A DNA stretch of 6,454 nucleotides from a virus (taxonomy: Duplodnaviria > Heunggongvirae > Uroviricota > Caudoviricetes), in IMG/VR virus record IMGVR_UViG_2634166457_000014; one strand, given 5' to 3'. The notes below the pieces were generated by a model, which saw only the letters and a list, made by a program, of their open reading frames with translations, was not told the DNA's origin and ran no database searches. The position numbers and the translations under genes are program-made. Of this stretch, positions 1-6,454 are shown piece after piece. The first letter of the stretch is position 1. Each line of letters begins with the position of its first letter.

Positions 1-71
1 TTTCTGCTGTTACCGGTGCAGACGAAATACATAATTTTCGTCAGTTGCGAACGCTCAAAATTAGAGGACAT
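1..71 (-). CDS. 5' end of a downstream late gene (N-terminal 23 codons, MSSNFERSQLTKIMYFVCTGNSR...); product unknown, by position possibly the next tail gene
   Basis: ATG at 71..69 preceded by AGGAG about 7 nt upstream (minus-strand TTTTCAGGAGACGAGT-ATG). The frame is open to the window edge. Too short to assign a family. Confidence 0.35.
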   Translation of the reverse strand, partial: MSSNFERSQLTKIMYFVCTGNSR

Positions 72-85
72 ACTCGTCTCCTGAA

Positions 86-118
86 AATAAAAAAACCCGA
101 CCAGCGGCGGGTGGGTAA
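86..118 (-). terminator. Candidate rho-independent terminator between the DUF3168-like gene and the next gene
   Basis: Minus strand reads CACCCGCC-GCTG-GTCGGGT followed by TTTTTTTATTTT (the + strand A-run at 89-95). The GC-rich stem is about 6-7 bp with one mismatch or bulge. It lies in the 61-nt gap between the stop at 133 and the ATG at 71. Confidence 0.35.
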
Positions 119-132
119 AATCATTAACGACC

Positions 133-477
133 TCAGGCTATTACCTGAAATTCAAGCGTGGCTCTGCTCAGACGGGAATCAGGATCATAACCCTGAGTTT
201 TAGAAATAACGGAGGGTACAAGTTGCCTTACCGCATCAAGCGCCTGTTCTCGGATATCATCTGCGTCATCAGGCACCGTTGCCCAGACATCGATCTGCAC
301 GGTAATTCTGGATTCAGCCTGACCATCAAGCACATCAGACGCCGTGTCAGACACCACAGAAAACACCAGCCACGGCGGAAATACCGCAGGCTTTCCCTCC
401 GTCAGCGGGACCACATAAGGATAAACCTGTCCTCCGGCCAGCGGAGACAGCAGGGAATACAGTGTGGCCTCTCTCAT
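133..477 (-). CDS. DUF3168-family phage protein (putative tail completion / tail terminator-like), 114 aa
   Basis: ORF with ATG at 477..475 overlapping the upstream stop (ATGA). The N-terminal pattern ATLYSLLS...GGQVYPYVVP...RITVQIDVWA resembles the DUF3168 signature (ALYALL...RIYP...RVQVDxW). Its position after the gp10-like gene is typical. Confidence 0.7.
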   Translation of the reverse strand: MREATLYSLLSPLAGGQVYPYVVPLTEGKPAVFPPWLVFSVVSDTASDVLDGQAESRITVQIDVWATVPDDADDIREQALDAVRQLVPSVISKTQGYDPDSRLSRATLEFQVIA

Positions 478-920
478 TTACTTAAGACCTCATCAATAGC
501 CTGATTCATTCGCTGTATGGCAATCTGTGCTGCCAGTTCCTCTGTCGTATCGAACGCCAGGCGAATGAACGGATGCGCGGGCATGTTTATCGTTCCCAGC
601 TCCACAAAGCGCCAGTAAAACGCATTTCGGGGATCGCTGGCTTTCATGCTGTTATCACTGTTTCCGGTTCGCAGGTTCCGTCCACGAATGTGGACACCCG
701 AGATAATTTCCCCCCGACGCTTTGAACGCTGCGTGAGAACAACCACATTTTTCTTCAGTTTCCCGGTTCGCTCCGGCGCACGTTCAACAACTGCATCCCG
801 CATCACTTCAGCACCGGCACGGGTAGCATCGCGCAGAACCTTATTGTTTTCTGCCCTGCTGAGCGTCTCCAGAACCCGTGCAATATCCGCCAGGCCGGAA
901 AAATCAAGACTGAAATCCAT
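474..920 (-). CDS. HK97 gp10-family phage protein (head-tail joining / tail component), ~148 aa
   Basis: Contains the MPAHPFIRLAF motif characteristic of the HK97 gp10-like family. The track start at 923 is a GTG; the adjacent ATG at 920..918 overlaps the TGA of the upstream gene (GTGATGGA), so the start is 920 or 923. Confidence 0.8.
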   Translation of the reverse strand: MDFSLDFSGLADIARVLETLSRAENNKVLRDATRAGAEVMRDAVVERAPERTGKLKKNVVVLTQRSKRRGEIISGVHIRGRNLRTGNSDNSMKASDPRNAFYWRFVELGTINMPAHPFIRLAFDTTEELAAQIAIQRMNQAIDEVLSK

Positions 921-1258
921 CACACATTCCCCTTCAGGCTGCAGAGTATTTCAAGCCGGGTGGCGCGTGCATCCGGTATTGGTGGCCCTTCTATACCCAG
1001 AATGGCTCCTTTAAATGCACCGGTCAGCACTTTCAGACGTGAAGTCGCTGTCACATCGCGCCGAAATCGCATCCAGACTCTGACCGTAGCCTGAGCGGTT
1101 TCTGCACCTCCTGATATTCTCTCCCTCCCGCTGATCCCCTTAACTTCTGCCCATACGGTTGCCCCCTCCGTCATTGTCTCCACCGGATGCCCTGACGGAG
1201 AACGGACGGTGGTGACATTCAGAATAGTTACGCGATCACGTAATCTGCCCGCCTGCAT
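920..1258 (-). CDS. Phage head-tail adaptor / head closure protein (Phage_H_T_join-like), 112 aa
   Basis: N-terminus MQAGRLRDRVTI...TVWAEV...RVWMRFRRDV matches the conserved pattern of head-tail joining proteins. A strong RBS (AGGAGG) lies 5 nt upstream of the ATG at 1258. Confidence 0.8.
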   Translation of the reverse strand: MQAGRLRDRVTILNVTTVRSPSGHPVETMTEGATVWAEVKGISGRERISGGAETAQATVRVWMRFRRDVTATSRLKVLTGAFKGAILGIEGPPIPDARATRLEILCSLKGNV

Positions 1259-1266
1259 GGTTCCTC

Positions 1267-1584
1267 CTACAAAGGAATAAAACGATAAGGCTCCAGCAGA
1301 GAAGAAAAACCAAACGGGACTGGTGCCTTACTGACATCTGAGGAATTTTCCCGGTTTTCGTACCAGTGCCCGACCAGCAACATGAGCGCCAGCAAAACAT
1401 CATCAGCTATAAGCACCCCTTCAGGATCACTCTCTGGCACCGTCTCCTCATAAAGCTTACGGTTGATAAAATTTTCTGCCTTGCGGCAGGCAGCCCGGAA
1501 ATACAGCATCAGTAACTCATCATCAGTTGCATCATCTGTATCAATACGGCACTGCGCCCTGAGTTTTTCAACTATTGCTGCCAT
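1267..1584 (-). CDS. gp6-like head-tail connector protein (Phage_connect_1-like), ~105 aa
   Basis: IVEKLRAQCRIDTDDATDDELLMLYFRAACRKAENFINRKL fits the gp6-like connector pattern (hydrophobic-x-LEEAKAHLRID-acidic-DDELI). The preferred start is ATG 1584..1582, which has GGAG 7 nt upstream. The alternative start at 1629 overlaps the capsid stop (TAATG). Confidence 0.75.
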   Translation of the reverse strand: MAAIVEKLRAQCRIDTDDATDDELLMLYFRAACRKAENFINRKLYEETVPESDPEGVLIADDVLLALMLLVGHWYENRENSSDVSKAPVPFGFSSLLEPYRFIPL

Positions 1585-1628
1585 CAGAAACTCCTGCCCG
1601 CAACACTGTGCGGGCATAAAAAACTGCA

Positions 1629-2855
1629 TTACGCAGCGGCTTTCTGGCGGGTTGCAGCACCGATCTTCATCAGCTTAATCGCCTGAGAATCCACCAGCAT
1701 ACCGCCGGTTCGTTTGGTGGTATAAAAGCCCACAAACGGTTTGTTGGTGTAAGGATCGCGCAGGATACGGGTGCCGATACGATCAACGATGGTATAGCCG
1801 CGTTTGAAGTTACCAAACGCAATGGCTTTTGCATCGGCAGCAATATCCGGCATCTGCTCATTTTCAACGATGCCATACCCTGCCAGAGAAGAAGGCTGAC
1901 CCAGCTCAATGCCCGGACGCCACAGATAATTTCCGTCGTTATCCTTCAGCAGACGAATGGCAAACAGGCTGCTGTTGTTCATCATAAACTTCGCGCCGCT
2001 GCGGTGCGCCTTGCGCAGGGTGTAAATCAGTTTAATGATCGCATCAGCGGTCACGCCAGAAGCCGCACCGGAAGCAATGTGCTGAAGTTTGCCAAACGCA
2101 CGGGTCTTGTCATCTTCATCAGTGGACTCATAAGCCAGAAAACCTTTTGGTTTTTTGCTGCCGTCGCCACTGGTAAAGGCAATTTCTTCCTGTTCGGCAA
2201 ATTCCAGCGCCAGCTCACTGTTGATCCAGTCTTCCACATTGAAGAAAGCATCATCGAGCATTTTCTGGGTAGCCTGCGGGTTGCCGTAGATTTCCCCCAT
2301 AAAGGGTTCAATCAGCCCCAGTTTTGAGGTGGCGGTTTCCGGACGCGTATCCGTTTCCCCCACCCATCCGGACTTAGTGCCGCCCAGATTCACCAGTTTT
2401 TTATAATCCGAGCCACCGAGGGTGATCACAGTGGCTTCCTGGCGCATCACCACCTCATCTTTCAGCAGCGTCAGAATGGTGCGATCCAGTTCTTCCGGAA
2501 TGGCATAACCACCATCTTCATCATTGCCCACCTGCAGCGCCTTACGCTCAAGCTCACGCAGACCGTCTTCACGCCCCTTGCGCATAAATCCGATAAACGC
2601 TTCTTTATGCTCACTGGCAACTTTATTTTGCGTGCCACCTGCCGGACGCTTGACTTCAGCCAGTTCAGCCTCAAGATCGTTTTTGAGATTTTCCAGCTCA
2701 GCCAGTTTTTCGTTGAGAGTTTCCACTTCTCCGGCAAGTTTTCCCTTTTCCTGCTCGATCGCGTCGATACGTTTGTCGTTTTTTGCCTTAAAATCGTCAA
2801 ACTTCTGCTGCAAATCCTGCGCGACCTGTTCCACGTCTTTAATATCAACAGCCAT
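1629..2855 (-). CDS. Major capsid protein, HK97 family, with N-terminal coiled-coil (delta/scaffold-like) region, 408 aa
   Basis: 408-aa ORF directly downstream of the protease, with AGGAGT 6 nt before the ATG. The first ~75 residues are E/K/L/A-rich heptad-like sequence (KLAGEVETLNEKLAELENLKNDLEAELAEV), followed by a globular domain typical of HK97-type capsids (GGYAIPEE..., ...LWRPGIELG...). No separate scaffold gene is present. Confidence 0.92.
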   Translation of the reverse strand: MAVDIKDVEQVAQDLQQKFDDFKAKNDKRIDAIEQEKGKLAGEVETLNEKLAELENLKNDLEAELAEVKRPAGGTQNKVASEHKEAFIGFMRKGREDGLRELERKALQVGNDEDGGYAIPEELDRTILTLLKDEVVMRQEATVITLGGSDYKKLVNLGGTKSGWVGETDTRPETATSKLGLIEPFMGEIYGNPQATQKMLDDAFFNVEDWINSELALEFAEQEEIAFTSGDGSKKPKGFLAYESTDEDDKTRAFGKLQHIASGAASGVTADAIIKLIYTLRKAHRSGAKFMMNNSSLFAIRLLKDNDGNYLWRPGIELGQPSSLAGYGIVENEQMPDIAADAKAIAFGNFKRGYTIVDRIGTRILRDPYTNKPFVGFYTTKRTGGMLVDSQAIKLMKIGAATRQKAAA

Positions 2856-2868
2856 TATTTACTCCTGA

Positions 2869-3519
2869 TTAAAAAGTAAGATTTTTCAGTGCATTCAGTG
2901 CGGCATCCACATCCTCAGCATCACGCAGGGATAAAGCGCCATATCCCCCGGCCATGAATGCTTTGGCCTGGGTTCGCGAAAGTCCAACATCGCGCAGGAC
3001 CCGCTCAATAATTTTCTGATCAGGGATCTCCCCACGCGCCAGCGCATTTTTCACATCGCTGATGCGAGCCTCATCATTGGAAGGAAACGTCACCAGACTG
3101 ACCTCCCACAGGTCGATCTCTTTCAGCAGGAATACCCCTTTTTCACGGTCGTACTCCCAGTCTTTCAGGATGTAGCCAATAGAAAGGCCGGTTAAAGAAC
3201 CGGCCTTCATATGAGCATGTGCACGTTTTGCCAGAGGATCATCATCAACGAGTAATCGCCCCCTGACATAAAGCCCGACATCATCTTCTTTCATTTCGGT
3301 GTACACACCGATGGGCTCATCCATGCGGTGCTGCCAGAGCAACGCAGGCAGCGCCTTTTTTTCGCTCCATTTCTGGAGCGTTGTGGTAAAGGCACCGGGG
3401 ACCACCACATCATCGTGGCTGTCCTTAACACCAAAAACAGAACCGTAACCTTCAAATTCCCCGGAATCACTGACGGATTTCAGGTTCAGCGGTATATCAA
3501 GACGCTGTTTTGTCTGCAT
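2869..3519 (-). CDS. Prohead maturation protease, HK97 family (peptidase S78-like), 216 aa (226 aa if started at 3549)
   Basis: Sits between portal and capsid. Motifs such as GYGSVFGVKDSHDDVVVPGAF and AGSLTGLSIGY are typical of HK97-type prohead proteases. ATG 3519..3517 has AAGGAGAGTGGAG upstream, whereas the track start at 3549 lacks an RBS. The gene overlaps the portal 3' end. Confidence 0.88.
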   Translation of the reverse strand: MQTKQRLDIPLNLKSVSDSGEFEGYGSVFGVKDSHDDVVVPGAFTTTLQKWSEKKALPALLWQHRMDEPIGVYTEMKEDDVGLYVRGRLLVDDDPLAKRAHAHMKAGSLTGLSIGYILKDWEYDREKGVFLLKEIDLWEVSLVTFPSNDEARISDVKNALARGEIPDQKIIERVLRDVGLSRTQAKAFMAGGYGALSLRDAEDVDAALNALKNLTF

Positions 3520-4738
3520 CTCCACTCTCCTTTTTCTTACCGTTGTCATCGCCAGCAGAGGGACTGGTGGTCATGTTCATCGGTGTCAGATACACATCAC
3601 CGCCCGGGCGAGGATTCATATCCTCCAGATCACGGCAGTCATTAGGGGAATAAATCCCCCAGTTGATCCCCGTGGCATACGCTTCAAAGCGGGATTTCAT
3701 GTCGCCACGCAACAATGCTCCGGCATTAAATTTGGCGTAAAACCTCCCCTGTTTGCTCTCCCTGACCAGCCCTGTATTAATCCGCTGTTCAATACGGGTC
3801 AGATACGGCACAAGGGAATAATTAATGAAACCAAGCCCCAGCTCTTCAATATTGTTGAAGGTGGCGCGATCGGTGTTCTGCACCATATGCAGCGGCACGC
3901 GGAACAGGCGACAGATTTCTTCCAGCTGAAACTTGCGGGTTTCCAGGAACTGGCTGTCCTCGGCATTCAGTGCCACCGTTTTCCAGTCCAGCCCCATTTC
4001 CAGAATCATCGGACGATGAGAATTTCCCAGCCCGACATGCCGTTCCTCAAAGTCCTTTTTGATACGCGCATAAGCCTGATCAGAAAGTTGTTGATCCGTA
4101 CGCAACACACCGGATGTCACCGCGCCGTTACCAAACAGCCTGGCGCCGTGCTCCTCAGTTGCCGCTGCCAGTGAAATGGCCTCACGCGCATACGCAATGG
4201 GATTCAGCCCGACCAGTCCGTCCAGCGTCAGAGTGCGCACATGCCAGATTTCATCCTGGGTCAACACATCCACGGAACCATCCGGAAACGTCACCTGATA
4301 AACCGGCTGCCACTGGCTGTTCAGTTTCGGCTCCACACAGCCCGGATCAATCGGAAGAAGCTCCACCACTTCCCCCAGAGCCTTCACTTTGTAGGCGTAA
4401 AAATTACCCCGCAGGCACAGGCAGACGATAACCAGCTCCCAGAATTCCTGCGGCGTCATGTAGCCATTGGGTTTTGCCGAAACCAGCTTATGCAGTCGTT
4501 CATCCACTGCCCGTGTTTTAAGAGTGCCGGTGATTTTGTAGAGGCTGCAGGGCAGCATACCAACAGACTCCGCCAGCACCCTGACGCAGGAATACACCGC
4601 CGTCAGTCGCATGGCCCGCTGGCTGCTGATCCGCTTTCCGGTATAGGTGTCGTATGACAATCCCAGTTCTTCCGCAAGCATCCCGGGCGTTGTGACGGGA
4701 GTGTTATTTTTGCGCTGAAAAAGCCCCTGGAAAAACAT
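3497..4738 (-). CDS. Portal protein, HK97 family, 413 aa
   Basis: 413-aa ORF immediately upstream of the protease, with an acidic C-terminal tail and the size and content of Phage_portal family proteins. GGAGGTGA lies 5 nt upstream of the ATG at 4738. Confidence 0.92.
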   Translation of the reverse strand: MFFQGLFQRKNNTPVTTPGMLAEELGLSYDTYTGKRISSQRAMRLTAVYSCVRVLAESVGMLPCSLYKITGTLKTRAVDERLHKLVSAKPNGYMTPQEFWELVIVCLCLRGNFYAYKVKALGEVVELLPIDPGCVEPKLNSQWQPVYQVTFPDGSVDVLTQDEIWHVRTLTLDGLVGLNPIAYAREAISLAAATEEHGARLFGNGAVTSGVLRTDQQLSDQAYARIKKDFEERHVGLGNSHRPMILEMGLDWKTVALNAEDSQFLETRKFQLEEICRLFRVPLHMVQNTDRATFNNIEELGLGFINYSLVPYLTRIEQRINTGLVRESKQGRFYAKFNAGALLRGDMKSRFEAYATGINWGIYSPNDCRDLEDMNPRPGGDVYLTPMNMTTSPSAGDDNGKKKESGDADKTAS

Positions 4739-4920
4739 TACTCACCTCCGGAGGCGACCCGGTGACCGCGATCGAGATAACGCGCAACCAGCCACGACCA
4801 GCACAGGCACAGCGCCCCGGCAACAACAAAACCTGCCGGGGGATAAATCAGCCATGCGCCATACGACAGCAAAAGCGCCCCCAGCACGCCCACCAGTGGC
4901 GTGAGAATTATCAGAAACAT
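4738..4920 (-). CDS. Small hydrophobic protein, 60 aa, two predicted transmembrane helices; function unknown
   Basis: ATG 4920..4918 with GAGGG 5-6 nt upstream, starting 11 nt after the terminase TAA. Its TAA overlaps the portal ATG (TAATG). The sequence [48 protein letters not shown] has a charged C-terminus ([11 protein letters not shown]). Codon usage is CTG-rich like the neighbours. Confidence 0.6.
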
Positions 4921-4931
4921 AATGCCCTCGG

Positions 4932-6269
4932 TTAAAGCGAGCGGATACCAACACTAATCAGGTGTTCAGACAGATCCGGCTCCGGTTCACCGCCATTGAC
5001 CAGCATCCGGCTCATTGCTGTAAACATCGCAACAGGGCCGTCGATTTTGGCTTCCGGCGTGGATTTATTCGGGAAGATATTGTCGTTTTTGTCCGGTTTC
5101 ACCGTAACGTTAGACATCATCCAGTTCATGACCGGGTGATTGCTGTGGTGAAAACGCCCGGCATAGACCAGCGATTCCGTTTCCTTCATGGCCTCTGACA
5201 GATTGCGAACCGTCTGCGGAACTTCCACCAGCGGTATCCCTTCTTCAGCCAGCGCCAGACTGAACTGCATTGCACTCCACGGGTCAAATCCCAGTTCCCT
5301 GAGGTTTTCACCACCAATCCATTCCAGTAAATCACTTCTTATCTGAGCATGATCGATAACATCACCATCCGTCAGGATGAGCTTATCCATCTCCGCCCAT
5401 TTCCGGTAAAGCTCCGCCATCTGCCGCGAGCACCGCTCCAGTCGCCCTTCCGGAAGCCAGAATTTAAAATCGGCATGAACATGCTCGTTATCCGTTCGCC
5501 AGAGTTTTGCCGCCGCACAGATATCAATCTTATGAGCAAGGTCGACGCCGACCCACATGGGATACGTTTTCAGCTCATGCTGTGGAGCGATGTATTCGCA
5601 CTTCTCCCACTTAATCATGTCCATCCAGGCCGATTCGGCAGTGACCCACACATTCATGTGTTTGGTGAAAAAATTCACCCGCGCCGAGACCTGCTCCTTC
5701 GCTTTTTTCGCCAGACGACGCAGATCATCCCAGCGTTTACAGATGCCCAGGCCCGGATTCGCTTTCTGCCAGACCGTTTCATCAAACGGATCATCTCCCT
5801 CATCGAGCGTGTAAATAATCGCAAAGTAGGAGTCGTCTTTTACCGCGCCCTCCACGTCGCTGTTATAGCCTCGCAATACCTTAATGGCGTAATCACGTTG
5901 CTCGTAACAAATCCCTTCCTTGTTAAAGCCCGCCGTGGTGATACCAAATAACAGGGACTGCAGACGGGCACCGGTTGCCGTTTCCAGAACGTCCCACACG
6001 TCGCGGGTTTTATGTGCATGCAACTCATCAATAATGGCGCAGTGGATGTTCAGACCGTCCAGGTTGTTTGCATCCGAGGAAAGCGGTTCAAATTTTGATG
6101 CGCTCTGCTCCTGGTAAATCGCCAGCTTGTTGAAATCAAACAACCGCCCGAGTGTCGACCGGGCTTTTCTGACCATATTTTTGGCGTCTTCAAACACGAT
6201 TCTGGCCTGGTCACGCGTGGTTGCGGCTGAATACACCTCAGCACCGCCTTCACCATCTGCCCCCGTCAT
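4932..6269 (-). CDS. Terminase large subunit, C-terminal ~445 aa (end of ATPase domain with Walker B-like IIDELH, plus nuclease domain); frame-disrupted relative to its N-terminal part
   Basis: The translation starts with [28 protein letters not shown] and carries ...[18 protein letters not shown]..., typical of the Terminase_1 family downstream of the P-loop. The Walker A segment is found in a different frame upstream (6271..6454). Confidence 0.88.
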
Positions 6270-6270
6270 A

Positions 6271-6454
6271 CTACAGGCCGATACCCGATGACAGGGTTGA
6301 TTTTGCGTTTTTACGGGCGACTTCGTTGTACGCCGTCCGGAACCGGCGCACCATCACCGGGCGTCCGCTGCCATCGCTGCGCATGACAACTTCCCCGGTA
6401 TCTTCATTCACCAGCGGAATGACAAAACCAAAAATATTAATGAGGATAAATACA
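6271..6454 (-). pseudogene. Terminase large subunit N-terminal fragment (contains Walker A-like segment), 5'-partial in window, terminated by in-frame TAG at 6273..6271
   Basis: Manual translation of the minus strand in the frame with codons starting at 6453 gives VFILINIFGFVIPLVNEDTGEVVMRSDGSGRPVMVRRFRTAYNEVARKNAKSTLSSGIGL*. This is P-loop-like and colinear with the downstream terminase ORF, but shifted by one nucleotide. Confidence 0.6.

Follow-up and report, generated by a model that had tools for sequence, protein, structure and literature searches.

Gene content of the window

The window, by which we mean the whole stretch of DNA analysed here (6454 bp), is the entire scaffold KQ241495.1 of the draft assembly GCA_001186315.2 of Escherichia coli M114, an identity that we checked. 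It carries a head module of the HK97/phiP27 type, encoded on the minus strand over its full length (1..6454). The genes are arranged in the order terL (large terminase, from codon 80 onwards), a 60-aa hydrophobic ORF, portal, S78 prohead protease, major capsid protein, connector, head-closure protein, gp10-like protein and gp17, followed by the first codons of an Ig-domain tail gene. Apart from the large terminase and the tail gene, the other eight genes of the window are all full length. In relatives, an HNH endonuclease and a P27-family small terminase (TerS) lie upstream of the module, and they are also found upstream in L023, a contig of an independent assembly that is discussed below.

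The strongly hydrophobic 60-aa ORF between terL and portal (4738-4920, minus strand) is conserved in every relative and has no Pfam family, and its counterpart in phiP27-type phages is annotated as a putative integral membrane protein.

Many E. coli genomes hold two to five copies of this head module. In two independent drafts a contig breaks in the 5' part of terL: the M114 scaffold at codon 80, and contig L019 of GCA_902842135.1 at about codon 205 (the start of L019, corresponding to position 6077 of the window). This pattern suggests a repetition of the HNH-terS-terL 5' region within these genomes, via co-resident related prophages.

A frame break in the large terminase gene

On the minus strand, the reading frame that is open from position 6453 reads VFILINIFGFVIPLVNEDTGEVVMRSDGSGRPVMVRRFRTAYNEVARKNAKSTLSSGIGL and runs into a TAG stop codon at 6273..6271, the peptide before the stop being ...NEVARKNAKSTLSSGIGL. 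A second frame begins with the ATG at 6269..6267, extends over 445 codons and ends at 4932. Translation thus bears out the initial annotation, which had described a Walker A-containing frame ending at this TAG and a remainder of the ATPase continuing one frame over. The upstream piece (6274..6453, minus strand), whose 5' end is cut by the contig end, is collinear with codons 80-139 of an intact 585-aa TerL. The downstream piece (4932..6269, minus strand) corresponds to codons 141-585, covers the remainder of the ATPase domain together with the nuclease domain, and is deposited as the 445-aa protein KNA38881.1 under the name 'phage terminase, large subunit [Escherichia coli M114]'. An exact-protein look-up of this 445-aa product returned one record only, KQ241495.1. 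A reading of the upstream piece as a 46-aa ORF starting from a GTG at 6411 was rejected: the frame is open to the window edge and represents codons 80-139 of a 585-codon terL.

The two pieces match consecutive parts of one Pfam domain, TerL_ATPase (PF03354), with profile positions 16-42 in the upstream piece and 51-176 in the downstream piece, the latter being followed by TerL_nuclease (PF20441). Alignment with relatives places the difference at a single G at position 6271 (minus strand; C on the plus strand), in the context TA[G]TATG, which corresponds to a gap in all 11-14 aligned relatives. This G both creates the TAG stop (6271..6273, minus strand) and shifts the frame, and its deletion restores the same sequence as that found in intact homologues. 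The earlier proposal of a one-nucleotide insertion at 6271-6273 splitting an HK97-type terL is therefore supported and can be narrowed down to one base, and the repair suggested at that time proves exact.

The gene affected is a typical member of its family. An intact relative scores 96.5 bits with PF03354 and 180.4 bits with PF20441, and the intact TerL aligns with the HK97 large terminase (PDB 6Z6D) at an E-value of 1.2e-36, collinearly over residues 122-559. In this alignment, the Walker A motif, or P-loop, ARKNAKST (6295..6318, minus strand) corresponds to ARKNGKTG of HK97 TerL, and the Walker B region AIIDE (6024..6038, minus strand) to AILDE. Several features expected of an HK97-type TerL are in place: an ATPase domain and an RNase-H-like nuclease domain, both Walker motifs, and the context of a packaging module. 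In Walker A, the canonical Gly before the Lys is replaced by Ala. This is a family trait of an enterobacterial TerL subfamily and not an error, because all 15 relatives examined share it. The break lies 184 nt from a contig end and, in the protein, disrupts the ATPase core inside the helix next after the P-loop.

Distribution of the interrupted frame

About 930 complete E. coli genomes carry the terL region; the matches listed are all annotated as terminase large subunit, and match over 554 bases versus 555 in the window. An 81-nt query with the site at its centre gave no perfect match among the 710 complete E. coli genomes that have a match, and in the best matches among those listed a one-base gap is the sole difference (80 bases matched, 98.8%). 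The frameshifted 33-mer is likewise absent from 185,579 species-representative genomes scanned for the exact pattern. Moreover, the carriers of the exact portal protein, which are 96-97% identical prophages and served us as comparison panel, have an intact TerL in all cases, and the representative of the TerL cluster (P0002) is 96.3% identical at the DNA level.

At the protein level, the TerL family of Enterobacterales consists of single chains of about 575-585 aa in nearly all of the best 120 of 7,919 matches, the remainder of these 120 being a few partials and fusion products. A single uninterrupted frame is thus missing from the deposited window and present in the base-identical contig L023 and in essentially all homologues. 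Because no surveyed genome has the extra base and nearly all of the best homologues are single-chain, we conclude that terL is not normally divided into two genes and that the frameshift lacks conservation; the initial annotation had named separate genes in homologues as the observation that would overturn its reading, and what we find is the opposite.

Two observations on database entries of this family deserve mention. Six proteins of 747-859 aa (P0031, P0034, P0106, and P0113-P0115) consist of most of TerL (99% identity) fused to GpJ/tail-tip domains (PF09327, PF12421, PF24801), and probably reflect deletions within prophages or misassemblies by which terL became joined to the tail-fibre region. 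In addition, NCBI gives the name 'phage major capsid protein, partial' to several partial members of the 90% TerL cluster (P0003, P0007, P0008, and P0012), apparently a naming error propagated among fragments.

These distributions bear directly on the idea that the break might be functional, either as a programmed +1 frameshift at CUG UAG U or as a site of termination and reinitiation at TAG-T-ATG that would yield a split ATPase. Sites of the prfB type have a 0-frame stop codon at the shift site, and here too a 0-frame stop stands at the point from which a +1 shift would recover the full protein; a single nucleotide separates this stop from the next ATG, so that reinitiation is physically possible. 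However, the arrangement occurs in 0 of the 710 E. coli genomes, nearly all of the best 120 homologues are single chains, a base-identical copy without the extra base exists (see below), and the cut would interrupt the ATPase core inside the helix after the P-loop. The local context is equally unfavourable, as CUG in the P site, in contrast to the CUU U of prfB, is unable to re-pair after a +1 shift (UGU), and the upstream sequence UCGGGUAUCGGC has no AGGAGG- or GGGGG-like Shine-Dalgarno element at a spacing of about 3 nt. The local fold is unremarkable (z -1.6) and there is no Rfam match, and an RNA element at the break was therefore rejected as well. On both context and conservation we reject a programmed +1 frameshift, in agreement with the initial annotation, which had judged it unlikely and for which a prfB-type context is indeed absent. 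A functional break of either kind is in our view extremely improbable. Still less credible is the specific scenario in which the G is real in M114 and termination-reinitiation at TAG-T-ATG yields polypeptides of 139 and 445 aa that reassemble into a working split ATPase.

Base-identical copies in independent assemblies

We reconstructed the repaired protein by joining both frames of the window without the G and by adding the N-terminal 79 aa, which are invariant in 15 relatives. The resulting 585-aa sequence has an exact entry (P0150) in a collection of 15 billion proteins, from which the variant carrying the common Glu97 in place of the Asp97 of the window is absent. P0150 is encoded on the Logan contig SRR024330_578 (L023). 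Over positions 1-2660 of the minus strand, L023 and the window show no mismatch and one gap, the G at 6271, and L023 even shares the T at +6400 that is otherwise specific to the window. Because L023 has no mismatch over 2660 nt and is missing the G, an independent assembly holds the same allele with an intact terL; in other words, the lesion is not reproduced in an independent sequence of the same element.

Two further contigs extend this comparison to the rest of the window. L021 (SRR024330_856, a second contig of the same run; 933 nt) and L019 (a contig of GCA_902842135.1; 6075 nt) both show no mismatch to the window. Each of them is without two other insertions that the window has at +100 and +29. 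Taken together, L023, L021, and L019 differ from the window by three insertions and no substitution. SRR024330 possibly stems from a different strain with the same prophage, in which case the comparison with L023 and L021 would speak for the recency of the insertions and not for an error. Our search for literature on E. coli M114, its genome, GCA_001186315, and SRR024330 found nothing.

Contig L021 has a peculiarity of its own. In the region 1583-2257 of this contig (SRR024330_856), gene calling gives a single fused ORF of 224 aa (PF06222 + PF06223) for the tail assembly chaperones, whereas all other relatives have separate ORFs of 123 aa and about 92 aa in this region. Lambda-like phages use a -1 frameshift there to produce G and GT, and the fused ORF of L021 could be either a real in-frame fusion or an assembly difference.

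Further singleton insertions near the scaffold ends

The second singleton insertion is a T at 100..100 (minus strand), within a terminator-like hairpin after the gp17 gene. This hairpin (95-112, minus strand) has the form ACCCGCC-GCU-GGCGGGU followed by a run of U, and folds into a perfect stem of -12.1 kcal/mol in L019 and a bulged one of -8.8 kcal/mol in the window. The third is a T at 29..29 (minus strand), which frameshifts the Ig-domain tail gene (ATG at 71..69) after codon 14. Over positions 1-71 of the minus strand the window reads MSSNFERSQLTKIMYFVCTGNSR, as against MSSNFERSQLTKIMISSAPVTAE in the identical copies, and both L019 and L021 encode an intact Ig-domain tail protein of 234 aa. 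Of the 898 complete E. coli genomes that carry this stretch, none has either the insertion at +100 or that at +29, and the best match reaches 138/140.

With respect to relatives, the window thus holds three singleton indels, at 6271, +100, and +29, and none in its 6.1-kb interior. Their distances to the closest contig end are 184, 100, and 29 nt, an arrangement with P ~1.9e-4 under uniform placement. By comparison, 38 of the 39 substitutions that are specific to the window with respect to the comparison panel fall in the interior and are spread along the contig. All of these substitutions are shared with L019 or L023 wherever these contigs overlap the window, and represent normal mosaic variation. 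Four events in total fall into the end zones, and the probability of finding all three indels among those four is about 3.5e-4.

A 454-type homopolymer error, tried as a specific explanation, is a poor fit, as 0/3 insertions lengthen a homopolymer.

Origin of the frame break

Taken at face value, the record invites the conclusion that M114 has very recently acquired a genuine 1-nt insertion that cuts TerL short after the P-loop helix, so that packaging is lost and the prophage is newly defective. The base is in the deposited record and the 445-aa CDS was annotated from it, terminase pseudogenes of prophages are common in E. coli, and SRR024330 may come from a strain other than M114. Against this, the insertion is a singleton with respect to the 710 complete genomes that have the stretch, base-identical copies have an intact gene, and the module shows no other sign of decay. 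A genuine mutation would furthermore require three independent insertions, with no substitution, in 6.4 kb, all of them at most 184 nt from the ends of an arbitrary contig. We consider this scenario improbable, if clearly less so than any functional role of the break.

A consensus or assembly error, that is an extra G in an otherwise ordinary and intact head module of the HK97/phiP27 type, is very probably the correct explanation. The G is a singleton near a contig end, clustered with other singleton indels, and is absent from identical independent assemblies. Because the differences are insertions only, with no substitutions, and are confined to the contig ends, they point to a contig-end consensus error and not to prophage decay. 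Some observations go the other way: a minority variant would be lost in a k-mer-based Logan assembly, the insertions are not homopolymer-length errors and hence bear no platform-specific signature, and the annotation of the depositors took the 445-aa CDS as it stands. The initial annotation had left the choice between a defective or cryptic prophage and an assembly or sequencing error. The second is favoured by the intact, base-identical independent assemblies and by three singleton insertions confined to the ends, while the first finds no support in a module of which every other gene is intact.

If the break is a consensus error, the real gene would encode an intact single-chain TerL of 585 aa, with an N-terminal ASCE ATPase (ARKNAKST, IIDE) and a C-terminal RNase-H-like nuclease, and it would sit in a standard HNH-TerS-TerL-portal-protease-capsid packaging module. 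The insertions would have arisen from poor consensus near the contig ends, for which the mixing of reads from co-resident related prophages at these ends is a plausible but unproven source.

The main value of this case lies in quality control. At face value, the record would class an apparently complete prophage head module of the HK97/phiP27 type as defective, and it has put a truncated 'terminase' (KNA38881.1) into the protein databases. Neither this protein nor the apparent frameshift of the tail gene should be taken as evidence for a defective prophage. The case also shows a cheap and read-free way to tell pseudogenes from contig-end errors, in which the frame is repaired in silico, the resulting protein is looked up by exact sequence, and the carrier contigs are compared base for base with the DNA in question.

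Comparison with known systems

Among known cases of apparent frame breaks, the prfB site (CUU UGA C after a Shine-Dalgarno-like element) resembles the present one in having a 0-frame stop where a +1 shift would restore the protein, but its slippery codon and its stimulator are both missing here (CUG UAG U). Another parallel is provided by errors at contig ends of draft assemblies that mimic pseudogenes. As in these, we find singleton indels confined to the terminal ~200 nt of a short contig, which are missing from the identical sequence when assembled independently. The present case differs in that its insertions are not of the homopolymer-length type and that it is argued from assembled sequences.

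The underlying gene belongs to a known and ordinary type of large terminase and tells nothing new on terminase biology. The head modules of phiP27/ST64B/SfII-type phages are 82-94% identical at the nucleotide level to the portal-protease-capsid part of the window and share its gene order, down to the small membrane ORF that separates terL from portal. A broken terL is present in none of them. The window is a mosaic, and its best complete-genome match over the whole length is only 98.1%.

With respect to HK97, the solved TerL chain (6Z6D) has 514 aa versus 585 aa for the repaired gene, Walker A is ARKNGKT with Gly versus ARKNAKS with Ala here, and terL in the window, as deposited, is interrupted by a single additional base, unlike that of HK97. 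The HK97 large terminase (gp2) nevertheless shares with the gene described here the two-domain architecture, the Walker A pattern ARKNxK(T/S), and the Walker B pattern I(I/L)DE, and the surroundings are the same in both, with an HNH endonuclease and a P27-family TerS upstream and the portal, the S78 protease, and an HK97-fold capsid protein downstream.
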